From: Candidatus Bathyarchaeia archaeon
GTDB lineage: Archaea; Thermoproteota; Bathyarchaeia; 40CM-2-53-6
DNA length: 64,000 nt
Assembly (NCBI GenBank): GCA_049513715.1
Contig: JBEKVV010000007.1
Location: 1 to 64,000 of the forward strand
Reading direction: 5' to 3'
Positions 1,004 to 34,054 of the stretch are shown here, piece after piece (position 1 is the first letter of the stretch; every line of letters starts with the position of its first letter). The position numbers were made by a program, and so were the translations under genes. The notes under the pieces were generated by a model. The model did no database searches. It worked only from the letters and a program-made list of their open reading frames with translations, and was not told where the DNA came from.

Positions 1004-1120
1004 TTGGTTAGGCATCGGCGGTTCGGGATTCAGATTTTCATTGCCCGCATACCTGAATGGAAAATGTGAAATCGTAGTGAACCATTACTTGTAGCAATCA
1101 TCAAGCTGGTGAGCTGAGTT

Positions 1121-1828
1121 ATGGGAACCAAGGAAAGTCTAGAAACCAAGGAAGAAAAAGTGGAAGGCGAAGTGAAGGAAGTTAATGTAAACTACTATTC
1201 CGATCAGACGGCAGATACCCGGATTCTAACAGATAAGGACGAAATCTGGTTTAACGCAGTTGCGCCCGTCGCAGTAAAAGATAGGGTGACAGCTAGCGGG
1301 AAACGAGAGAAACTCAGCCACATTTTCGAACAAAGCCACACGAAATCAATCGTCGATGAAATAGCACGGATTAAGAGTCCAAGTATCCGACAGCTATACA
1401 CAAATCTGGACAGACTAGTATTGAGCGCTAACGAGATTTTTGACGAGAAGACAGGGGCAACGTACTCTATCCCCTACCAAGTGGAATTGCATTGGGATCT
1501 GAAACTGGCGAAACTGAGGCTTTTCTATCCGGGACTCGCTTTCGCGGGTGCAGTGATTCTGAATCTGTTTGCAGCCTGGTTGATTGGCTTTAGCGTTGAT
1601 AAGTTTTTTTCGGCATTCGCAGCTAGTTTTATTCTGGTTTCACTGATCAGTCTAGTCGGAGACCAAGAAATCTTGAATAGACTTGCTAAGGTTTCTAAAA
1701 TCGACCGGCATAACGCTGGCAATAAGAGTGCTCTGAAGGATGGCAAGTCAATCAACCTAGTTCTTACAGCCGTGCTCAGTCTTGCTGCAGCAATCATCAA
1801 CATCTTCCACATCGTCATCCACATCTGA
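1121..1828 (+). CDS. Hypothetical membrane protein (about 3 C-terminal TM segments)
   Basis: 235-aa ORF with hydrophobic C-terminal helices; lies between family A sites. Confidence 0.65.
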   Translation: MGTKESLETKEEKVEGEVKEVNVNYYSDQTADTRILTDKDEIWFNAVAPVAVKDRVTASGKREKLSHIFEQSHTKSIVDEIARIKSPSIRQLYTNLDRLVLSANEIFDEKTGATYSIPYQVELHWDLKLAKLRLFYPGLAFAGAVILNLFAAWLIGFSVDKFFSAFAASFILVSLISLVGDQEILNRLAKVSKIDRHNAGNKSALKDGKSINLVLTAVLSLAAAIINIFHIVIHI

Positions 1829-1884
1829 CCAGGAACCAAAGTCCCACGAGCATCACAATTTGAACCACAGGTTCAGGTGTTTTC

Positions 1885-1917
1885 GTGTGTGTGTGCGCAC
1901 TATTGGACCCACACACA
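1885..1917 (+). repeat. Family A site, full copy
   Basis: GTGTGTGTGTG-CGCACTA-TTGGACC-CACACACA, preceded by AATTTGAACC at 1857 and by GTTTTC. Confidence 0.8.
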
Positions 1918-1954
1918 GACTTTCATTTAAGCGGGAGGTTGGCTATCATTGACT

Positions 1955-2317
1955 ATGACTAACCAACTATCGAAAGCCAAATTCATTAGTCTTGAGACAT
2001 ACAAGAGAAACGGCGAAGCAGTTAGGACTCCCGTTTGGTTTGTAGAGGAAAGCGGCTTGCTTTATTTTCATTCGCCGGCAAAATCTTGGAAGGTGAAGAG
2101 GCTTCAAAGGAATCCTGTCGTTCGTTTAGCACCTTGTGCAAGATTCGGCAGAATAGAGGGGGACTGGCTCAAAGGAAAAGCTACTCGGATCGATGGAGAG
2201 GATGGCAAAAGAATCGTCAAGCTGGTAAACTCTAAGCAGGCGCTAGGAGATAGAATTATTGGGTTTTTCGAGAAGAAGAATAGAGTTGCTTTCTCAATCA
2301 AGTTGGATGCTAATTGA
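1955..2317 (+). CDS. PPOX-class F420-dependent oxidoreductase (pyridoxamine 5'-phosphate oxidase family)
   Basis: FISLETYKRNGEAVRTPVWF...KVKRLQRNPVVRLAPC motif. Confidence 0.85.
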   Translation: MTNQLSKAKFISLETYKRNGEAVRTPVWFVEESGLLYFHSPAKSWKVKRLQRNPVVRLAPCARFGRIEGDWLKGKATRIDGEDGKRIVKLVNSKQALGDRIIGFFEKKNRVAFSIKLDAN

Positions 2318-2421
2318 GCCATCAAAAAGAAATTCCGTAAGAGGAGAGACGCAAAGTTCTGTTAAGCAAACTTGAGACGATGGAAGCCGACTAGACATAA
2401 TCCATTTCTACGTATTTCCAT

Positions 2422-2469
2422 CGGTTCAAATTACGACGCCCGCACCACTGATATCACACGCACGAAAAC
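2422..2469 (+). repeat. Family A hybrid site: tRNA 3'-end-like segment plus right arm
   Basis: CGGTTCAAATTACGACGCC-CGCACCA-CTGATAT-CACACGCAC-GAAAAC. Confidence 0.75.
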
Positions 2470-2508
2470 TACAAATCTGCTAGAACAGAGGATTCTCGTG
2501 TGTTCTGA

Positions 2509-3210
2509 TTGCCGAGGATTCCGTTAATCGAAGACTTGACTAAGGGACCTGTTCCTCCGGGGTCCAATATTCTTGTTGAATTTGATCCTGCATCGCAATG
2601 GCATAATGCATCGGTCGCTGTTGCAGCCGGCTGGTTGAGAACTGGCGGAAGCGTTAGTTATCTTGCGTTCTCCCGGCCACCAGATAATGTCCGTTCTCAA
2701 CTCCGACAACTTGGACTTGACACTGAGGAGCTCGAACGGACCGATCGGTTATGGACTACCGATGTATACAGCGCGTCGATAGGACAGAAATCCAAAGAAA
2801 GGTTCGCCGTTGAGTCGCTAAAGGTCGCGGACCTGAGCATTTGGGTAGCAAGGGAGGCGATGGCTGATTCACCTGCCCCTGAATTTCTCATAATAGATGA
2901 TAACAATTCGGTTCTCGATAGATTTAACCCCGAGAGGAATTGGGTCGAATTCCTCCTATCGAGACCTATCCCGATGACCAAACGAAGGCAAATGACTAAT
3001 CTCCATGGCATCATCGGGGGAATTCACAGCAACTGGGCGTACAAACAACTCGAGGCTGCGGTTGAGGGTATCATCGATTTCAAGGTTGATGAAGTAAACG
3101 GAGAACGCAGAACTTTCGTTGGGATCCGAGGCATGCTGAATGTTTGTTTCGATTCGCGATGGCACCCATTGAAGATCGGAGAAGACTTTGAGATTACTCT
3201 GGAGAAGTAA
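2509..3210 (+). CDS. KaiC/RAD55-family ATPase-fold protein, degenerate P-loop
   Basis: IPLIEDLTKGPVPPGSNILVEFDPAS...EAAVEGIIDFK...GIRGM; KaiC-like layout without GKT. Confidence 0.75.
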   Translation: MPRIPLIEDLTKGPVPPGSNILVEFDPASQWHNASVAVAAGWLRTGGSVSYLAFSRPPDNVRSQLRQLGLDTEELERTDRLWTTDVYSASIGQKSKERFAVESLKVADLSIWVAREAMADSPAPEFLIIDDNNSVLDRFNPERNWVEFLLSRPIPMTKRRQMTNLHGIIGGIHSNWAYKQLEAAVEGIIDFKVDEVNGERRTFVGIRGMLNVCFDSRWHPLKIGEDFEITLEK

Positions 3211-3306
3211 GGAAGCGAAAACTGCAACTCGTACACGTACGAAACCTGCCTGCTGTAAAAGCGTCAGATACATATAGTGCTGAACTTGATTAGGGCGGGA
3301 TGCATC

Positions 3307-3600
3307 ATGTCTATTGTCATGATAATGAATTGGAAAGGCCTCACCCGCGAACAGTATGAGGCCATGAGGAAACCCATCAACTGGGAAGGAAACGTACCCA
3401 AAGGGCTGCGATTCCACGTAGCGGCGTTCGACGCGAACGGGGCACACGTCACCGATATCTGGGACACCGCCGATAACTTCAACGACTTCGTCAAGAGCAG
3501 GCTTATGCCAGGCGTGAAACAGCTCGGGTTTAAAGGCGAACCTCAGGTAGAAATCTACCCAACCCACGCCATCTTCACACCCGCCTACAACCCAAAGTAA
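3307..3600 (+). CDS. Small hypothetical protein (dimeric alpha-beta barrel-like)
   Basis: TREQYEAM...GLRFHVA...VTDIWDTADNF...RLMP pattern. Confidence 0.7.
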   Translation: MSIVMIMNWKGLTREQYEAMRKPINWEGNVPKGLRFHVAAFDANGAHVTDIWDTADNFNDFVKSRLMPGVKQLGFKGEPQVEIYPTHAIFTPAYNPK

Positions 3601-4807: not shown

Positions 4808-4878
4808 ATATGTAGCGGTAAGTTCGGGTCAAAATCCAAATCTAAATTGGGGTTGAAATCCCCTGCCCCACCTCTGAA
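4808..4878 (+). repeat. Family B direct repeat, copy 1 (internally duplicated, degenerate)
   Basis: ATATGTAGCGGTAAGTTCGGGTCAAAATCC...TAAATTGGGGTTGAAATCCCCTGCCCCACCTCTGAA. Confidence 0.8.
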
Positions 4879-4909
4879 TTCAATCTACATGTTTGCGCTT
4901 GTTGCAAAT

Positions 4910-5379: not shown

Positions 5380-6774
5380 TTGAAGATTCGATTTCTGGGC
5401 GCAACGCATCAGGTAACCGGGTCAAGCTACCTTGTAGACGTGGCGGGCTTGAAGATCCTGGTGGATTGTGGATTGTTTCAGGAGCGGCACTATTCGTGCA
5501 GGAACTGGGAGGCCTTCCAGGTTCCCCCGTACCAGGTTGATTATCTCCTCCTAACGCACGTCCACTTGGATCATTCGGGGCTTATCCCCAAACTCTTGAG
5601 GGAGGGATTCGGTGGGGCCATTCTGTTGACGGCTCCGTCGAAGGAGATGCTTCCCATCGTGCTACTGGATTCTGCTAGGATCCAAGAGGAAGATGCGGCT
5701 TTCAAGAAGAGTCGTCACGAAAGAGAAAACCGGACTGGGCCGTTTCCGGAGATTCCTCTTTACACGGTAGAGGATGCTAGGGACTGTTTTCCGCTCCTCA
5801 AACCAGTCCCGTACAGAGAATATGTTCCGCTGAATGAACATGTGAAGGTCTGCTTCCATGATGCTGGACATATTCTTGGCTCAGCGATGATTGAGATGGA
5901 GATTCAGGACGAGAGAGGGGCGCGGAACATGGTTTTTTCGGGTGATATTGGCCAATGGAACAAGCCGCTTCTCAACGACCCTTCGGTTTTTGATCGTGCG
6001 GATTACGTTATCATGGAGTCAACTTACGGGAACCGCAACCATGACAATACACAGGATGTGGAAGAGAAGCTCTCCAGGGTAATCAACGATACGGTGGGTG
6101 CGGGTGGGAATGTAGTTATTCCAACCTTCGCCATCGAACGCGCCCAGGAACTACTGTACCACTTCAACTATCTGGCGCGTGCGAAACGGATCCCCTACGT
6201 TCCGATTATTCTTGACAGTCCCATGGCCGTCGAAATTACGAAAGTCTTCGAACATTACGAGAAGTATCTGGATGATGAAACACGGAAACTCTTCGAGGAT
6301 GGTCAGTCCCCGTTTGACTTTCCAGGCCTGAGACTCATCGAGTCCGCTGAAGCTTCTAGGGGGATCAACACGACCGGAGGGTCAACGGTCATCATGGCAG
6401 GCTCGGGGATGATCACTGGTGGACGCATCAAGCATCACCTAGTCAGCAATATTGCTCGTCCGGAATCCACGCTGCTCTTCGTTGGCTACCAGGCGGTTGG
6501 TACGTTGGGGCGCGAAATCCTCGAAGGGGCATCACCGGTCAGGATACTAGGACAATCCTATCCCGTCAAGATGAGGATCGAAAGGATCGACGCCTTCTCC
6601 GCGCACGCCGGCATGAACGACCTTATCCGCTGGATAGACAATTTCAAATCACCGCCTAAGCGTGTTTTCCTGACCCACGGCGAAGACGACTCGATCCTAC
6701 GCATGAGCGACTATGTCCATTCGAAGGGTTGGGAAGTGAGCGCTCCTACATACGGGGAGGAATTTGACTTATGA
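5380..6774 (+). CDS. MBL-fold beta-CASP ribonuclease (CPSF/YSH1-like)
   Basis: LTHVHLDHSG, AGHILGSA, FSGD, MESTYG, FSAHA, THGE motifs. Confidence 0.92.
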   Translation: MKIRFLGATHQVTGSSYLVDVAGLKILVDCGLFQERHYSCRNWEAFQVPPYQVDYLLLTHVHLDHSGLIPKLLREGFGGAILLTAPSKEMLPIVLLDSARIQEEDAAFKKSRHERENRTGPFPEIPLYTVEDARDCFPLLKPVPYREYVPLNEHVKVCFHDAGHILGSAMIEMEIQDERGARNMVFSGDIGQWNKPLLNDPSVFDRADYVIMESTYGNRNHDNTQDVEEKLSRVINDTVGAGGNVVIPTFAIERAQELLYHFNYLARAKRIPYVPIILDSPMAVEITKVFEHYEKYLDDETRKLFEDGQSPFDFPGLRLIESAEASRGINTTGGSTVIMAGSGMITGGRIKHHLVSNIARPESTLLFVGYQAVGTLGREILEGASPVRILGQSYPVKMRIERIDAFSAHAGMNDLIRWIDNFKSPPKRVFLTHGEDDSILRMSDYVHSKGWEVSAPTYGEEFDL

Positions 6775-6826
6775 CAACTTTCATACGACAAATGAAAATG
6801 TCCGAAAGAACAAATTACACTTGCTG

Positions 6827-6873
6827 ATATGTACCGGTAAATTGGGGTTGAAAACCCCTGCCCCATCTCTGAA
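6827..6873 (+). repeat. Family B direct repeat, copy 3
   Basis: ATATGTACCGGTAAATTGGGGTTGAAAACCCCTGCCCCATCTCTGAA. Confidence 0.9.
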
Positions 6874-9519: not shown

Positions 9520-9593
9520 ACGAGTTCAGTATGTCATTATGTTTCGTTCCAGAAAGCTGTTTTTCAACTTCTTTACGATTCCCATCAAGGGCC

Positions 9594-9642
9594 TTATATG
9601 TACCGGTAAATTGGGGTCAAAATCCCCTGCCCCATCTCTGAA
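9594..9642 (+). repeat. Family B direct repeat, copy 4
   Basis: TTATATGTACCGGTAAATTGGGGTCAAAATCCCCTGCCCCATCTCTGAA. Confidence 0.9.
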
Positions 9643-9946
9643 CACGCGCAGATGAATTTCGAAAGTTCAAACGAGGGTTTTGTTTTAGAGGTATCGTTAT
9701 TATTAGGGTCAGACAGAATTGCCTATTGGAAGATGATCGATCGTTGGGATTCATCTATCCTCCTCAGCGACGCATACCATACGTGCCTGCAGCAGGTGCA
9801 TTTTGCCCACGATGCCTCGCACCGCAACAGTATGATTTTAGGTTCTGTTGGCGTTGCGGATTGTACCTCGGCCGTTAGTGTGAATCCACCCGCCACCGTA
9901 GTCTGCTGTGAGAGTCAAGAGACCGAGCCTAAGGCTTGAATGAACC

Positions 9947-10555: not shown

Positions 10556-10614
10556 TTTCGCATTCTGCTGCTAACAGAATTGGTGGGACTATCCACCATC
10601 GGCCTACGAGCTCG

Positions 10615-10662
10615 TTATATGTACCGGTACATTAGGGTTAAAATCCCCTGCCCCATCTCTGA
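10615..10662 (+). repeat. Family B direct repeat, copy 5
   Basis: TTATATGTACCGGTACATTAGGGTTAAAATCCCCTGCCCCATCTCTGA; contains the perfect palindrome ATGTACCGGTACAT. Confidence 0.9.
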
Positions 10663-10844
10663 GGCACATTAGGCTGTTGAAAAGACATTGAGTTTTCCGC
10701 TTTATCCGTTTCCGCAGAACATAGAATACTGGACAACCTACCAACGAGGTTTCGGGTGATAGAAAGCAAGGTAGAAATAGTTATCCGGCGTGGGCCCAAT
10801 CACATCGATGTGGTGCGGAACGCTAGGAGACTTCAGTAATTTTC

Positions 10845-13331: not shown

Positions 13332-14507
13332 ATGTCTGAAAAAGTCAGCAGGAGAGATGCTCTAAAGATCGCCGGCGCTTTGGTTGGTGGAGTTGCGATT
13401 GGCGGAGTGGGCGGTTACCTCGCTGGTCAGTCGCAAACCCAGGCTCCGGCCCAGCAACAAACTACGACAGTAACGGCTTCCAACTTGTCAATGCTCGAAC
13501 CTGCGCTAAGCGCCTACGCGTGGTCGGGTGAGATGGCTCCGGGTCTACCCCAACTCTTCGGCGAACAGTACGGAGTGACTGTGACCTACGATGAGTCGAT
13601 TGAGAGCAATGAGTCAATGGAAGCAAAAGTGGCCCCAGGCACGTCTGGCTACGATGTGGTTGTTCCGACCGATCATACAGTAGTCGACATGATCCAGAGG
13701 GGAATGCTTCAGGAACTCGACTTGAGCAAAATCCCCAACTACAAATATCTTCTGGATGAATTCAAGAGTCCCACCTATGATCCTAGCAACAAGTACAGTA
13801 TTCCTCTTGTAACAGGAACGACAGGCATCGGGTACAACACAGATGAAGTCAAGGACGACGTTGAGAAGGTTGGGTGGGGAATGATCTTCGACCCTAACTA
13901 TGCTCAGAAATATTCGAAGAAGATATCCCTCCTAAACTATGACCGCGCAGTGTTCAACATTGCATTATTGTACTTGGGCTACACTATTCAAGACACGGAT
14001 CGGTCACATTGGGAAGAGGCAAAGAACGCTATCATCAAGATTAAGCCGTATCTGGCGGCCTTCGATACTAACGGCGTCACAGACAATCTCGTGGCAGGAA
14101 ACTACGTTCTAGCAGAAACCTACAGCGGGAATCTTCACATCGCAAGGATGAAAGGCATGGCAACGAATCCGCCGGTTAATCTCACCTACGTCATCCCATC
14201 GCAGGGCGCATCTGTATGGGTCGACAACTTTGCCATCCTCAAAGAATCCAAGAAGGTAAATTCCGCCCATGCCCTCATCAACAACTTAATAGATCCACGC
14301 GGTGCGGGTCTGATTTGCAACTTCGTCGGCGAGAGGGACCCGAACAAGTACGCCCTTGACAACGGATACATAATGAAGGACATAGCGGATGATCCAGCAT
14401 TATTCCCGACCCCTGAGGCGACGAAGAGGCTTCAAATCAACGCTAACTACACGGATCAAGACGTCGCTGACATGGGCAAACTGTGGACTGAGATCCAAGC
14501 CGCATAG
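13332..14507 (+). CDS. potD: ABC transporter substrate-binding protein, PotD/PotF family, Tat signal
   Basis: SRRDALK twin-arginine motif; GYDVVVPTD, GTTGIGYN, P.QGA.VWVDNFAI. Confidence 0.85.
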   Translation: MSEKVSRRDALKIAGALVGGVAIGGVGGYLAGQSQTQAPAQQQTTTVTASNLSMLEPALSAYAWSGEMAPGLPQLFGEQYGVTVTYDESIESNESMEAKVAPGTSGYDVVVPTDHTVVDMIQRGMLQELDLSKIPNYKYLLDEFKSPTYDPSNKYSIPLVTGTTGIGYNTDEVKDDVEKVGWGMIFDPNYAQKYSKKISLLNYDRAVFNIALLYLGYTIQDTDRSHWEEAKNAIIKIKPYLAAFDTNGVTDNLVAGNYVLAETYSGNLHIARMKGMATNPPVNLTYVIPSQGASVWVDNFAILKESKKVNSAHALINNLIDPRGAGLICNFVGERDPNKYALDNGYIMKDIADDPALFPTPEATKRLQINANYTDQDVADMGKLWTEIQAA

Positions 14508-29514: not shown

Positions 29515-29617
29515 AGTTCATGCAAACAAGTGGAGGAGGGAAAGATCTTCGTCCTCTTATTACCCCCCGCGGAGCCGAATTTCAATTTAGCACAGACACG
29601 GGGCGGGGCTGTTGGCC

Positions 29618-29667
29618 TTATATGTACCGGTAAATTGGGGTCAAAATCCCTTTGCCCCATCTCTGAA
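29618..29667 (+). repeat. Family B direct repeat, copy 6
   Basis: TTATATGTACCGGTAAATTGGGGTCAAAATCCCTTTGCCCCATCTCTGAA. Confidence 0.9.
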
Positions 29668-29762
29668 TACAAATTATGTGGGTTCAAAGGTGGGTGTAAA
29701 GCTGAACTCCCTGCACCGCAGATTCACTCCCGAAGATCTGCCACACAGCGAAAAACTAGTGG

Positions 29763-30734
29763 CTAGTTGTGTTTGGACAGAACTGTTCGTAGGGTGTTCA
29801 GAGAAATGTTGGCGCCGCTTACAATCACCACTACTTTCTCTCCCACTTTGAGCTTGGCCTTCTCAAGTAATGCAGCGATGGCGGCTGCTGCTGAGGGTTC
29901 GATTACCAAGTGGCACTCCTTCATTACTGTGAATACAGCGTTCTGAATTTGTTCCTCGCTGACGAGTAGGATTTCGTCGACGTTCTGTTTTGCGATTTGG
30001 AAGGTCAGTTGACCCGGCGCCCGAGTTGCCAACCCATCTGCGATTGAACTTGTATCAGCTAGGCGCGTGATTTTTCCTGTTTTGATTGATTGGTACATGG
30101 ATGATGCTTTCTCGGGTTCAACCCCGATAACCTTCGCTGCAGGCTTCAGGCTCTTGATAGCCGTGGAAATACCTGAGATGAGCCCACCACCCCCGATCGG
30201 TACGATGACTGTATTCACGCTTGGTAGGTCTTCAAGGATTTCCAGGCCAATTGTCCCTTGCCCAGCAATTATGTCCGGGTCATCGAACGGTGGAATCATC
30301 AGGGTGCCTGTGGCCTTCTGAATCTCCAGCGCCTTACTGAACCGCTCATCATGAAACAACCCATGCTTGATTACTTTGGCTCCGTACTCTTCAATGGCGT
30401 TTACTTTCTCCTGAACAGCGTTCGTTGGGACGACTATAGTCGCATTTGCACCAACCAGTTTCGCCATGTAGGACACGGCTAGCCCATGGTTGCCAGATGA
30501 CGCTGCAACAAACCCAAGCTTTCTTTCCTCTGGGCTAAGCTTGAGGATCTTGTTCGCTGCGCCGCGAATTTTGAAGACCCGTATGGGTTGGTAGTTTTCG
30601 AGTTTAAGGTACACGTTCGCTTTCGTTAACGCGCTTAGCCTAGGCGAATAGTACAATGGCGTCCTGTAGGCCACGTTTGCGATTCTGCGCCTTGCTTCTT
30701 GAATGGTGCTCAAAGTTACGGGAAGCTGACTCAT
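29763..30734 (-). CDS. PLP-dependent threonine/serine dehydratase
   Basis: LKLEN.Q...FKIRGA, SSGNHG, GQGTIGLE, PIGGGGLISG, SIADGL. Confidence 0.9.
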   Translation of the reverse strand: MSQLPVTLSTIQEARRRIANVAYRTPLYYSPRLSALTKANVYLKLENYQPIRVFKIRGAANKILKLSPEERKLGFVAASSGNHGLAVSYMAKLVGANATIVVPTNAVQEKVNAIEEYGAKVIKHGLFHDERFSKALEIQKATGTLMIPPFDDPDIIAGQGTIGLEILEDLPSVNTVIVPIGGGGLISGISTAIKSLKPAAKVIGVEPEKASSMYQSIKTGKITRLADTSSIADGLATRAPGQLTFQIAKQNVDEILLVSEEQIQNAVFTVMKECHLVIEPSAAAAIAALLEKAKLKVGEKVVVIVSGANISLNTLRTVLSKHN

Positions 30735-30742
30735 CGCCCTTG

Positions 30743-31180
30743 CTATCCCGTCGAAGCCGCAGCAGCCTTCAGCCCTTTCGGAAAATACGCTTGAACCTTG
30801 GGCTGCATCAAATAGTAAATTATCACCAAATCCAAGACCAGCGCAACCAGTTCACCTATCCCAGGCCTAACGAACAAGGAGAAGACTCCGAGCATTATGC
30901 CCAAAATGGCGCAAACCAAACCAGCAATCCATGCCCACCGCTTCCCAACCCACAAGCCTATGGCGAGAGCGAAATCAATCAGGGCGAAAACTAGCAGGGC
31001 GATTCCTCCGCCGATTATCCTAGTGGGAAACCATCTGACACGCGGAATCATGTCTGAAAGAATGAACCCCTCAATAACAATCGAGAGGCCACCCAGCAAA
31101 ACCATGACACCCAAGATAGCCTCGAGAACGGCAAGTATAGTGACCCCGATCGGGCGCTCCTTTGTCATCAACATGGCCAC
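30743..31180 (-). CDS. Hypothetical 4-TM membrane protein
   Basis: RPIGVTILAVL...GLW.GKRWAW...YYLMQPKVQAYF. Confidence 0.75.
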   Translation of the reverse strand: MAMLMTKERPIGVTILAVLEAILGVMVLLGGLSIVIEGFILSDMIPRVRWFPTRIIGGGIALLVFALIDFALAIGLWVGKRWAWIAGLVCAILGIMLGVFSLFVRPGIGELVALVLDLVIIYYLMQPKVQAYFPKGLKAAAASTG

Positions 31181-31193
31181 TTCTCTTGTTGTT

Positions 31194-31316
31194 TTAGCTC
31201 TTGCCTTTCTCGGCTAGTTCCTGCTTGATTTTCTCAGCCAGTTTCTTCTTTTCATCCTCATCCTTCGAAGAAATCCACTGTAGTTTGAGGTAGAAGACGT
31301 CTTTCCTTGAAGCCAT
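31194..31316 (-). CDS. Small charged hypothetical protein (40 aa)
   Basis: MASRKDVFYLKLQWISSKDEDEKKKLAEKIKQELAEKGKS*; below the ORF-track cutoff and co-oriented with the downstream gene. Confidence 0.45.
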   Translation of the reverse strand: MASRKDVFYLKLQWISSKDEDEKKKLAEKIKQELAEKGKS

Positions 31317-31502
31317 GGCAGGCGCCTGAATCTGTGTATTCGTTGCGCAGTCGCATCACACTGGAACCGAGAAATATAACCTTAGGCCGCCACAAATTGC
31401 AGCACCTATCGTAAGCGCGCAAAATCCTCCCACGTGACCGAGCGGAGTTTACTTGCCTTTTACTGTCGCTATGAACTCACTGAGCGGAATCGTTGGTAGT
31501 GT

Positions 31503-31554
31503 CGTACTCAAGACCAGGCTATCCGAACCGGATGGTTCTCTAGACTACGGCCGC
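31503..31554 (-). tRNA. tRNA 5'-end fragment (Gly-like) with a 21-nt BHB-type intron at 31519-31539
   Basis: GCGGCCGTAGTCTAG|AGAACCATCCGGTTCGGATAG|CCTGGTC-TTGAGTACG; TATA-like TTTTATA about 30 nt upstream; no anticodon or T arm follows. Confidence 0.6.
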
Positions 31555-31560
31555 AACCAA

Positions 31561-31582
31561 GCAATCTGATGCATCAGATCGC
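31561..31582. promoter_or_regulatory. Palindrome between the TATA-like box and the tRNA fragment
   Basis: Perfect 16-bp palindrome ATCTGATGCATCAGAT at 31564-31579. Confidence 0.45.
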
Positions 31583-31758
31583 ACTATAAAACTCTAGCCG
31601 GAATCCCAACAGTAGTATACTTCTACCTTCCCGCAACCTTTGATTGGAGACGCATCAACGTTAGAACTCCGAGAACACTCCCGACGTTTATTTCATTCTG
31701 AACAAATAGCCGTTCTTCTTCCGGTTCTTCGGTTTCGGTCGAAGTCAGGCAGGTTAAG

Positions 31759-32499
31759 TCAGTTCGCCACCGTCCCCAAATCGGCTTGTAGCTGATCGAA
31801 GTTGAACCCTGGCGCAAAGTCGGATTTCTTCGCTTCCGGAGGAAGAATTGCATACGCCTCGTCGACACATTCATCCCACCACGCCCAAGTCGCCTTTTGG
31901 GTATTCCCCCAAGTGAGGACGGTCACGCCAGTCGAATCGTATGCGACGACAAATACCGCGTGGCCATCCTGGGTCAGCGGACCCGGAGCCCAAGGCTGGC
32001 GAGCGTCAAACTCCTGAATGCAATTCTGTTGCACCTGAAACCCCAGGTAGACCCCGCCAAAAAGCTGAATTGCCTGTTGAATGTGCGTGTGATTCTTCCT
32101 GTCGATGCTGGCGTAAGCCAGGATCTTGTCTCCGGAAGCAGCGTGACTGCGCCAGTAGCTCAGCACATCGAGCTCGTTCAGGCCGGAGTCTATTCCGCCC
32201 GTCAGATGCATGTACAACTTGACCACATCCTGCTTAGACATGATCTTCTGCCGGCCGACCAAGCCACGATAGGTCGTGACCGCGTGGGCCAGAGCAGCGA
32301 TAGTGCAGTCTCCCAGGGTATCGTTACCGTCCAAAGGGAACAACTTTGTCGGGTCCGACGTATTCAGTTTCTGGTAGACCCTGGGTAGAACGTCGTAGGA
32401 AACAGGTGGCGCTGCAAGTGCAGGTGTCAGATAGTTCTCCAAGCGCAGCGTGCGATAGTCTTGCTTCGGTGGGTGCTTTCCAAATCTATATCCAGTCAT
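31759..32499 (-). CDS. Papain-like cysteine-protease-fold hypothetical protein
   Basis: GNDTLGDCTIAALAH (Cys), GHAVFVVAYD (His), TWG. Confidence 0.7.
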   Translation of the reverse strand: MTGYRFGKHPPKQDYRTLRLENYLTPALAAPPVSYDVLPRVYQKLNTSDPTKLFPLDGNDTLGDCTIAALAHAVTTYRGLVGRQKIMSKQDVVKLYMHLTGGIDSGLNELDVLSYWRSHAASGDKILAYASIDRKNHTHIQQAIQLFGGVYLGFQVQQNCIQEFDARQPWAPGPLTQDGHAVFVVAYDSTGVTVLTWGNTQKATWAWWDECVDEAYAILPPEAKKSDFAPGFNFDQLQADLGTVAN

Positions 32500-32981
32500 G
32501 AATGTGACCTCCTTTTGGTTGAAGTTATTTTCTTTCTGCTTCTTTCGGCACCTAACTGCAATTAGCGCGCACATCCTCCGTCCACTAATAGCTGAAACTA
32601 TCTATTTGGAGCTATCTATCTGTAGATACTTCTCTGCTCCACAATTCGTCCTTCCAAACCCAACGCCACCAGCCGGTCATGCCGTCAAAGTAAGTGCATT
32701 GATCAGCGTCCCGATCTCATACACTTGGAGGTCGATGGTGACTGAATCAGCTGGGATTGATTCCACCCATGCAGAATGGGTACTCAAGGAAAAGGAGATG
32801 GTTGGTGATATGCCTCTGATGACAGTGGTCATGGTGCGTAAAGGTTCCGGTGGTATACATGCAGATATCTTTGGTAATGTGAAACTTCAGCAGGGAGCGT
32901 TTGGTACCAGAGAAGTATTCGTATACGACCTGCCACCATTAGCCGCTGACATTTCGTTGCCACGGTGATGACATATGAATA

Positions 32982-33010
32982 TGTGTGTGGATCTTATGGT
33001 GCGCACACAC
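32982..33010 (-). repeat. Family A site, full copy
   Basis: Reverse complement GTGTGTG-CGCACCA-TAAGATC-CACACACA. Confidence 0.8.
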
Positions 33011-33012
33011 GA

Positions 33013-33285
33013 TTACCTACGAACGGAACCCCAAACCACTATTGTGACGCCAACAAGAGTAAGAGGAATTGGACAGAAGAATCCGAGAACGTAAACGTAG
33101 AGTCCAATGATTTGCAGTGTCTGACTAGCCTCAGCACTTGGTGGTAGGCAAGAAGCGGAGAGCACTATGCATGGACGTAACACGTAGAATGTGGCAACAT
33201 ACCAGATCACGCCTACAGCAGTCAGAACCAATCCAAACAGGATTCGTTCCCGAGGTTTCATGTCGATACTACCGCCTGTCGCCAT
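33013..33285 (-). CDS. Small 2-TM membrane protein bracketed by family A sites
   Basis: 90-aa hydrophobic ORF filling the interval between the sites at 32982 and 33329. Confidence 0.55.
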   Translation of the reverse strand: MATGGSIDMKPRERILFGLVLTAVGVIWYVATFYVLRPCIVLSASCLPPSAEASQTLQIIGLYVYVLGFFCPIPLTLVGVTIVVWGSVRR

Positions 33286-33328
33286 TGAAGCTGGTAGTTA
33301 GCCATAGTGCAGTTGCCTCCAGCGATTC

Positions 33329-33355
33329 GTGTATGTGGGTCCAGTGGTGCAGGCA
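33329..33355 (-). repeat. Family A hybrid site (core plus right arm)
   Basis: Reverse complement TGCC-TGCACCA-CTGGACC-CACATACAC. Confidence 0.7.
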
Positions 33356-33437
33356 ACACGAGTTTCGCTTACCCATTGCGCATCCGATACTATAGCGACA
33401 AGAAAGGAAACAATCGCACTCATAGATTGCGTTTAAA

Positions 33438-33468
33438 CGTACTCAAGACCAGGCTAGACTACGGTCGT
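33438..33468 (-). tRNA. Intron-less tRNA 5'-end fragment (degenerate)
   Basis: ACGACCGTAGTCTAGCCTGGTCTTGAGTACG; 29/31 identical to the spliced form of 31503..31554. Confidence 0.55.
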
Positions 33469-33607
33469 ATGGCTCGTCCTTTGGTTCCAGTGAAGTCGAA
33501 TTCAAATAAAAATTGAACCAGGAAAGACAAAGTAGAAATTACGCAGGTGTTCTTCACATTAGATTATACAGCGGCAGGGAATTTGGAGCTTTCCATAGGG
33601 GAACGGC

Positions 33608-34054
33608 TTACTCGAGGAACTTGCGCATCGCAACCGCAGACTCCGAGCACAACTCAACGAACTCAATCGAAGCCTTCACCGGCTCATCCACGTTTTCTCG
33701 ATCAATCGGTTGGAATCCGAGGCCCTCGAAGTAGGCTGTGGCAGTTGCAGTCAACAGGTAAGCCTTCTTTACCCCCTTGGCCCGTGCTTTTTCCAAGACC
33801 GTCCCGGTCAAGACTCTAGCGTATCCTTGGCCGCGAAATCGCTTGTCCACGGCAACAGACCTCAGCAAGCAGTTTTCGCCGTAGTGCTCGAATCCGGCAA
33901 CACCAATGATGCCTCCGCCCTGATCCAATGCAACAAGAAAATTCTCCAAATTCTCCCTGACTCCTTTCACCGGTAATTCACTCTCACTTAGAAGGCCAAT
34001 GATTCGCGGCAAATCGGCAGCCGTTGCTGCTCGCAACGTCATCGGCGCGGACAT
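33608..34054 (-). CDS. GNAT N-acetyltransferase (ArsN2-like)
   Basis: LLRSVAV...RGQG, AYLLT.TA..YF..LGF, EF..LC..SA..M. Confidence 0.85.
   Translation of the reverse strand: MSAPMTLRAATAADLPRIIGLLSESELPVKGVRENLENFLVALDQGGGIIGVAGFEHYGENCLLRSVAVDKRFRGQGYARVLTGTVLEKARAKGVKKAYLLTATATAYFEGLGFQPIDRENVDEPVKASIEFVELCSESAVAMRKFLE

Follow-up and report, generated by a model that had tools for sequence, protein, structure and literature searches.

What is the origin of two truncated 5' ends of a tRNA-Gly gene that lie in direct repeat about 1.9 kb apart, one carrying a short intron and the other not? The two fragments, here called copy A and copy B, occupy the minus strand of a 64,000-nt stretch of DNA (the window), which corresponds to C7:1-64000 of a bathyarchaeial metagenome-assembled genome (G000; 11 contigs, 2.79 Mb, estimated contamination 8.79%); peat and wetland metagenomes contain the same DNA. 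An initial annotation had offered two explanations, namely 5' halves of split tRNAs awaiting trans-splicing, or attachment-site (att) relics flanking a 1.9-kb insert. Our analysis favors the latter: with a probability of about 78%, A and B are the two borders of one cargo cassette, a member of a family that recombines into tRNA-Gly genes at the 8-bp core CCTGGTCT. In what follows, C denotes contigs of this genome, G the genomes of the genus (23 compared, this one included) and L extracted loci or metagenome contigs; features of the window are on the minus strand unless stated otherwise.

The described arrangement of two tRNA 5' fragments in direct repeat, one of them intron-bearing, is confirmed by reading 31554-31503 against 33468-33438. 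Copy A (31554-31503) is composed of exon 1, GCGGCCGTAGTCTAG (31540-31554, tRNA positions 1-15), a 21-nt insert, AGAACCATCCGGTTCGGATAG (31519-31539, at position 15/16), and CCTGGTCTTGAGTACG (31503-31518), the last of which divides into the core CCTGGTCT (31518-31511) and the 8-nt TGAGTACG (31510-31503). Copy B (33468-33438), ACGACCGTAGTCTAGCCTGGTCTTGAGTACG, has the tRNA-Gly 5' fragment ACGACCGTAGTCTAG, the same core (33453-33446) and the same 8 nt, which belong to the cassette left end (33445-33438). The common sequence amounts to 11 nt plus 16 nt, and the 21-nt insert is found only in A. When these 21 nt are removed, A is identical to B from tRNA position 5 onward, so the predicted excision does give the junction of the second copy. 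At two of its first four bases (ACGA), B departs from the GCGG with which tRNA-Gly starts, and the closest match to B is the junction in L041 and L043, which starts GCGACCG. The shared 16-mer tail occurs twice in the window against an expectation of 0 (two occurrences were reached in 0 of 100 shuffles), and a genome-wide search on both strands with up to two mismatches found three sites only: A, B and C5:168121.

The TATA-like box noted ahead of A, TTTTATAG (31584-31591, 29 nt upstream of G1), is retained in functional homologs, where the box and its spacing recur before the full-length tRNA-Gly(GCC) genes of G015, G016, G004, G013, G014, L042 and L044. Copy A itself ends 8 nt beyond the core, where it is fused to the remnant of a GYD-domain gene. 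Neither A nor B can yield a functional tRNA, and the unit sits outside any tRNA-Gly gene, since A is followed by the left-end 8 nt and the GYD remnant rather than by the rest of a tRNA. No tRNA was called in the window by ARAGORN or by Rfam at the gathering threshold, and a permissive Rfam scan of 31000-34000 gave merely two snoRNA-like matches, both with E > 1.

How such a pair could arise is seen in related contigs, where the states before and after a mobile cassette delivered an intron can be cleanly compared. The flanks of L042 correspond to the tRNA-Gly(GCC) locus on C3 of the present genome: L042o 1-630 matches C3 86898-86268 at 95.6% and L042o 2644-2774 matches C3 86278-86148 at 98.5%, and the 2.0 kb between these flanks is missing from C3, giving an empty and an occupied version of one site. 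The upstream copy in L042 has the resident promoter and an intron-less 5' fragment fused to the left module of the cassette (GCGGCCGTAGTCTAGCCTGGTCT joined to TGAGTACGTTTAAC). Downstream, a different promoter (CAGTTTTATAGAG) is followed by exon 1, the identical 21-nt intron, CCTGGTCT and the sequence from AGGAC through CCA; together these form a complete tRNA-Gly(GCC) gene with the anticodon loop CUGCCAC (40.4 bits over the full RF00005 model, positions 1-71). The intron is thus present on the element-borne copy and absent from the displaced one. A second occupied variant, L044, has an intron-less replacement 5' end and a rebuilt gene scoring 42.4 bits. The RF00005 genes in L042 and L023 were detected in E-value mode, and none of them at the gathering filter. 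A functional tRNA has been rebuilt at one border in L042 and in L044, and this is not the case at the window locus.

In the canonical event, of which L042 is the example, the resident promoter and 5' fragment stay behind upstream, where the core links them to the conserved left end of the cassette (TGAGTACGTTTAA...). The right end of the cassette brings a new promoter, exon 1 and, in some members, the 21-nt D-loop intron; joined at the core to the remainder of the tRNA, it produces a working gene with an intron that was previously absent. The core of the family, CCTGGTCT, maps to the D-loop, at tRNA positions 16 to about 21. In these terms, copy B reads as an attL-type border, in which a tRNA-Gly 5' fragment is fused to the conserved left end, and copy A reads as a cassette right end with its replacement promoter, exon 1 and D-loop intron. 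We infer that the recombination is site-specific and catalyzed in trans, the latter because the cassettes carry no recombinase.

The same borders recur well beyond L042. The exact 19-mer junction, TAGCCTGGTCTTGAGTACG, had no match in viral contigs and none in genome contigs. In a metagenome scan it returned 15 matches, which reduce to eight distinct loci after setting aside two from this DNA, two from the C5 copy and three near-duplicates. All eight have the core followed by the conserved left module (TGAGTACGTTTAARCGCAATCTAT...), and in seven of them a tRNA-Gly 5' fragment precedes the core; the sequence upstream in L040 is not tRNA-like. In L032, L035, L039 and L042, the left module measures approximately 125-150 nt and ends with the tRNA-3'-like GCTCGCACCA and an ...ACACACA motif, as does the module of the C5 copy (GCTCGCACCA..ACACACA). 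Copy B is 100% identical to the left junction of L041/L043 over 46 nt (33467-33422), and copy A matches the right end of L042 at 84% over 88 nt. In L039 and L043, the right border has nothing beyond CCTGGTCT in common with the tRNA. What remains of tRNA-Gly(UCC) next to it is itself broken off in the T-loop, and RF00005 finds nothing there; we therefore rejected the idea that either insert represents a giant intron or a split gene.

The cargo is unrelated between loci. It includes a SnoaL-like protein, a DUF116 protein and a weakly HEPN/AbiV-like open reading frame (ORF) in L039, a zinc-ribbon protein in L042, a Thr/Asn-rich secreted-type protein encoded by a single ORF in L044, ACT and TIR-SLFN proteins in L037, an HNH protein in L040 and Mrr in L035. 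The 15-mer GCGGCCGTAGTCTAG is matched exactly 46 times in the genus, in 22 of the 23 genomes; 37 of these matches are full genes, eight are truncated fragments and one lies at a contig end. The eight fragments come from six genomes (G000, G002, G004, G010, G012 and G014), and all of them break within or beside the same 10-nt D-loop stretch, CCTGGTCTAG. The fragment in G010 (L051) resembles A, with a promoter, exon 1, a 37-nt D-loop intron, the core and left-module-like sequence. A further fragment, D (C2:426068), is a truncated tRNA-Gly 5' piece 6.1 kb upstream of the intact tRNA-Gly(UCC) gene of the present genome (L021, C2:419820-426068); between D and that gene lie genes for a 990-aa NB-ARC/TPR (STAND-type) NTPase and an 810-aa Flg_new_2-domain protein. 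Fragments similar to D occur in G014 and G004, and share a different sequence after the core (TTAGTCCTyGTT...).

Two further arrangements were observed in related contigs. In L028 (G017:C4), a perfect 301-bp inverted repeat (6120-6420 and 14069-14369) surrounds 7.6 kb whose cargo includes a 905-aa protein (Flg_new_2, BNR-like); each arm has a right-end-type junction, CCTGGTTT and left-module-like sequence, and the segment may be an invertible or composite element. In L035 (oriented 1107-3501), the promoter and 5' fragment of tRNA-Gly(GCC) lead into the left module, an Mrr gene and then an inverted complete tRNA-Gly(UCC) gene together with the restriction-modification genes upstream of it, as if the two tRNA-Gly loci had been rearranged with one another.

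At the window locus, comparison with relatives indicates that the block between A and B is an insertion. G014 is syntenic over approximately 29.8-37.3 kb of the window (a PALP-domain gene, 29763-30734 in the window, then DUF2127, a small ORF, GNAT and DUF402), and there the GNAT gene and the small ORF are separated by an intact GYD gene, with no 1.9-kb block and no tRNA fragment. The G001 locus, from the GNAT gene to the small ORF, is like that of G014 and also lacks the block. The GYD gene is intact in G001, G007, G020, G013 and G014, and stands beside the GNAT gene where this was read directly (G001 and G014). All that is left of it in the window is a remnant at 31449-31505, the last 18 codons (TTLPTIPLSEFIATVKGK) plus the stop; tblastn with the G001 GYD protein gave an E-value of 2.4e-7 over a 26-aa alignment, with identity in the last 18 aa. 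The last three nucleotides of the tail of A (ACG) serve as the first retained GYD codon, i.e., the remnant starts inside the tail. The proposal of att relics flanking a 1.9-kb insert therefore holds up well, as the block is absent from G014 and G001 and its ends match those of inserts in the tRNA-Gly genes of related contigs. Two routes could account for the present structure: the cassette may have inserted itself into an older relic in which the core and 8 nt of a previous left end survived, or a deletion extending into the GYD gene may have shortened a tandem array. A clean insertion at a pseudo-site, which would place the 5' part of the GYD gene upstream of B, was considered and dropped, as the alignment scores of 8-10 were reached by 59-252 of 300 shuffles and tblastn found nothing.

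The 21-nt insert of A appears to be a genuine D-loop intron, given that the same 21 nt sit at the same place in the full-length gene of L042. Homologous introns of 26-28 nt, at the same site and behind a promoter like that of A, are found in the full-length tRNA-Gly(GCC) genes of G015, G016, G019 and G012. The tRNA-Gly(GCC) genes of G004 and of the present genome (C3:86290-86166) have no intron, and A with its intron removed matches the intron-less genes of G004, C3 and L044 through CCTGGTCT. Reading the variants by eye, the inner stems GAACC/GGUUC, AGGCC/GGCCU and ACCGA/UCGGU plus a G-U pair differ by compensatory changes, which are seen in five variants besides that of A. Non-canonical archaeal introns of the bulge-helix-bulge (BHB) type, known from Thermoproteales and related lineages, are short, lie outside position 37/38, have a 4-bp helix between 3-nt bulges together with an inner stem, and are excised precisely. 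The intron of A is likewise short, lies outside position 37/38, has an inner stem and would be excised precisely, none of which is unusual for the class; its outer helix is weak or absent, a relaxed form. The BHB fold put forward for the insert is borne out in part: a helix of exon GUCU with intron GGAU(C) or GGAC, a 3-nt bulge and the inner stem make up the minimum-energy fold of five of the six variants, but in the variant of A the inner stem is kept and the outer pairing is shifted. Likewise, A bears an intron and B does not, as the annotation had it, but the two are not one gene before and after intron gain or loss, as B is a displaced resident fragment and A is cassette-borne. Separately, the tRNA-Gly(CCC) gene of this genome (C1:573337 to ~573516, minus strand; RF00005 only 21.5 bits, read by eye) has several introns, apparently in the acceptor stem at 4/5 (GCGG/.../CCG), in the D-loop at 15/16 and after the anticodon arm.

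Could A, B or both nevertheless belong to a split tRNA-Gly, as 5' halves with promoters of their own whose transcripts are trans-spliced to a 3' half encoded elsewhere? The promoter of A, conserved as it is in functional homologs, and its spliceable-looking intron speak for this, and so does the state of the tRNA genes in this genome, which are so heavily interrupted that only 18 of 37 RF00005 matches pass the cut-off. (ARAGORN run with introns on the genome gave implausible calls, reporting the C3 gene as Val(cac) and the C2 gene as Pyl, and was not relied on.) However, the set of glycine isoacceptors is complete, with intact genes for Gly-GCC (C3:86166-86290, 42.4 bits, anticodon loop CUGCCAC), Gly-UCC (C2:419820-419913, 47.9 bits) and Gly-CCC, so the missing isoacceptor that a split gene might supply does not exist. 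A 3' half was not found either. In a custom scan for a T-arm and acceptor end, which gave 59 matches in the genome, CGGCCGC-A-CCA was found only in the three intact genes; the 15 genomic CGGCCGC-N-CCA sites comprise these three, three decayed relics without an anticodon arm and nine sites without a T-arm. No orphan CCTGGTCTAGGAC remainder was found, the six genomic matches with at most one mismatch being the three intact genes and three sites without tRNA context, and the ACGACCG of B had no convincing acceptor partner among 116 loose matches in the genome. A search of the genome for a 3' half with a leader complementary to the trailers of A and B (TGAGTACGACAC..., TGAGTACGTTTAAAC...) found none. 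The tail that would act as the trailer is the conserved end of an inserted element, and its third copy, on C5, is no complementary leader; it has the same-sense border layout of the G017 junctions (right-end arm, core, left module). Copy A, finally, runs into the GYD gene remnant. With three intact isoacceptors, no 3' half and a copy A cut off by a protein-gene remnant, we regard the split-tRNA proposal of the initial annotation as very improbable.

A rather more serious competitor accepts the same borders, but ascribes the movement to a transposase, for example an RNA-guided DEDD recombinase of the IS110 type, or to homologous recombination between strains, in either case without a tyrosine integrase acting on an att core. 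The cassettes do lack integrases, and in L039 and L043 an 8-nt duplication looks like that of a target site. Furthermore, Pfam searches of 40 ORFs from related loci, which found no other recombinase or integrase, did detect an IS110 transposase in L032 (5785-6900, minus strand; PF01548 at 2.3e-28, PF02371 at 7e-28), about 60 nt beyond the ~125-nt left module. However, this is the sole mobility gene seen at any junction and stands beside only one of the eight distinct junction loci, and the present genome has no match to PF01548 even though it carries A, B, D and the C5 copy. Visual inspection of the L039 ends revealed no terminal inverted repeats, and in members that supply a 5' exon of their own, 23 nt of the tRNA are duplicated, as in attP/attB recombination. 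We consider such a mode of movement unlikely, though with appreciably more to be said for it than for split halves. A bare artefact of assembly or a chance similarity can practically be dismissed. The window does come from a metagenome-assembled genome with some estimated contamination, but contigs from all four public DNA runs carry the block unchanged (three span it entirely and one covers it in overlapping pieces), with no differences and no joints; in addition, a JGI contig (L030) holds both copies 1935 nt apart, and the expectation of 0 for the 16-mer tail speaks against chance.

The cassette reading has its own difficulties. The relatives examined have no tRNA at this locus, so that at least one non-canonical step is needed, and the ~105 nt upstream of B match nothing. 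Contigs of the four DNA runs contain no excised, empty or joined form of the window locus; the source sample may be among these runs, and rare variants are lost from contigs. No recombinase gene was found in the window block, the island between D and tRNA-Gly(UCC), the G017 loci or the cassettes L039, L042 and L044, and it follows that the term site-specific is argued from the anatomy of the borders alone. Elsewhere in the genome there are two tyrosine-recombinase matches above the cut-off, neither of them near a tRNA-Gly fragment; one is XerA-like and lies at C5:218.6 kb.

The interior of the cassette can be described as follows. The left module (TGAGTACGTTTAAACGCAATCTAT...) extends over 33330-33445 and is homologous to L042o 609-673, L039o 365-429, L037o and L044o at 75-92%. 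Within it lies a GCACCA (33350-33345) followed by GACCCACATACA (33341-33330). The annotation had rightly pointed to this GCACCA about 90 nt past B, but it does not pair with the 5' end of B; it is the relic of the 3' end of another tRNA inside the conserved left module. Next comes an ORF of 90 aa (33013-33285) for a predicted membrane protein without a Pfam match, and then a hairpin-like motif, GTGTGTGCGCACCATAAGATCCACACACA (32982-33010; GTGTGTG/CACACAC), which has 29-nt matches at 93% in many congeners and may form an inner cassette boundary. A dispersed motif family, GCACCA-NNN-GAnCCACACACA, to which 32982-33010 and 33330-33350 of the window belong, is found 3' of the tRNA-Gly(GCC) and tRNA-Gly(CCC) genes and at many relics of tRNA 3' ends.

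The larger cargo ORF (31759-32499) encodes a conserved hypothetical protein of 246 aa, again without a Pfam match. It has 1797 metagenome homologs, and the best 120 of these are 77-89% identical, nearly all 246 aa long and none of them named. The gene is present in only two of the 23 genus genomes (G000 and G010), as fits acquired cargo, and the family is probably native to another lineage; no tRNA fragments were found around the G010 copy. The block also holds one doubtful plus-strand ORF. Beyond its right border, a small ORF (31198-31389) beginning MASRK (MASKEKDVFYLKLQW... in relatives) has a conserved promoter, TAAGGTTATATTTC, and is shared by at least nine congeners at 71-79% DNA identity.

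Several observations elsewhere in the genome relate to tRNA-derived repeats more generally. A repeat of about 50 nt, (G)CTTATATGTACCGGTAAATTGGGGTCAAAATCCCCTGCCCCATCTCTGAA, is present in 41 copies genome-wide and combines a TATA-like box, the palindrome TACCGGTA and a tRNA-like T-arm with a piece of a 3' end. Some copies end CCCCCGCACCA, and the copies form same-strand clusters at contig ends, 1-5 kb apart; those in the window are on the plus strand at 4843-4879, 6824-6873, 9586-9650, 10611-10663 and 29614-29670. Possibly they serve as the att-type sites of a second cassette system, one directed at the 3' ends of tRNAs. The third core and left module, at C5:168087-168141 (L022), has 25 nt identical to B and abuts a reversed 50-nt repeat, within a 60-kb region (C5:160-216 kb) dense in such repeats. 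A XerA-like tyrosine recombinase (C5:218633-219133; 181.6 bits against a cut-off of 220) is encoded at the edge of this region, where there is also a tRNA whose acceptor end is of the Ser type (C5:220120-220144). The C5 layout offers a lead toward a possible integron-like organization.

A tentative extension of these ideas, which we think doubtful on balance, would make the window pair a relic of a wider system. Recombinase-less cassettes with the tRNA-Gly D-loop core would be mobilized in trans and, together with the 41-copy sites and the XerA-like recombinase, would constitute an integron-like, tRNA-anchored network. The cargo of the family is often of a defense type (TIR-SLFN, Mrr, HNH and NB-ARC/TPR). 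If such a network exists, tRNA introns and promoters would spread horizontally between species, and the displaced fragments would be raw material for split tRNA genes.

The origin of non-canonical introns and of gene splitting in archaeal tRNAs is an old open question, to which the present lineage contributes an independent case. A site is seen both vacant and filled, its flanks 95-98% identical; the 21-nt intron of a working gene reappears unchanged in a stranded fragment; one 8-bp core has received several kinds of cassette; and tRNA fragments have been scattered as far as a protein-coding gene. The case is also relevant to the notion that tRNA genes are shielded from integration by their introns, as here the intron travels with the invader. 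For annotation, the warning is that a tRNA 5' piece with its own promoter, in an intron-rich archaeon, is not necessarily half of a split tRNA.

How does this locus compare with known systems? With the split and tri-split tRNAs of Nanoarchaeum equitans, Caldivirga maquilingensis and the Desulfurococcales (Chan et al. 2011; PMC3218864), it shares a promoter-bearing free 5' piece in an archaeon rich in non-canonical introns; unlike those, it has no partner half and no complementary leader or trailer, and the isoacceptor is not missing. With integrated archaeal plasmids and viruses that use SSV-type or pNOB8-type integrases, as outlined in parts of PMC3293823 and PMC3218864, it shares the direct repeat of a partial tRNA flanking foreign DNA, the role of tRNA genes as recombination hot spots and the fragments that remain after decay. 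It differs from these in having no integrase gene, whole or partitioned, inserts of only 0.8-2.7 kb, and a duplication of the tRNA 5' end and promoter instead of the usual 3' end.

The closest precedent is the tRNA-Thr(GGU) of Caldiarchaeum subterraneum, for which the sections of Sugahara et al. (2012; PMC3293823) on that locus describe a gene with an additional intron and, 1.8 kb upstream of it, a 5' fragment, as well as an existing empty variant, another fragment scattered more than 500 kb away and an insert encoding a putative recombinase. Their model invokes integration through an intron-bearing attP followed by homologous recombination; it rested on one locus in one Caldiarchaeum population, and the authors wanted more metagenomic cases. 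Our full-text literature search on Bathyarchaeia tRNA introns and integrases found no description of the case in this lineage, the one item returned being a general review of archaeal tyrosine recombinases. The points in common with Caldiarchaeum, within what those sections cover, are a 5' fragment ~1.8-2 kb upstream of a full gene with one intron more, a near-identical empty variant, an intron that arrives on the att copy of the element and a fragment scattered far from the intact gene. L042 would correspond to type C as defined there, the C3 locus to type B, and the window pair A and B to the scattered fragment of type A. Set against that account, the target here is tRNA-Gly (the GCC and UCC genes), with a core in the D-loop and an intron at 15/16 instead of 24/25. 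Cargo varies among the inserts, and none of those examined yielded a recombinase candidate; the 545-bp region 'a' is replaced by a conserved left module of ~125-150 nt, and the right border in the window is fused to a protein-gene remnant. By its sequence anatomy, the tRNA-Gly case thus matches the mobile-element model of Sugahara et al., as set out in those sections, and is a second instance of it, in another lineage and with a different tRNA, core and intron position.

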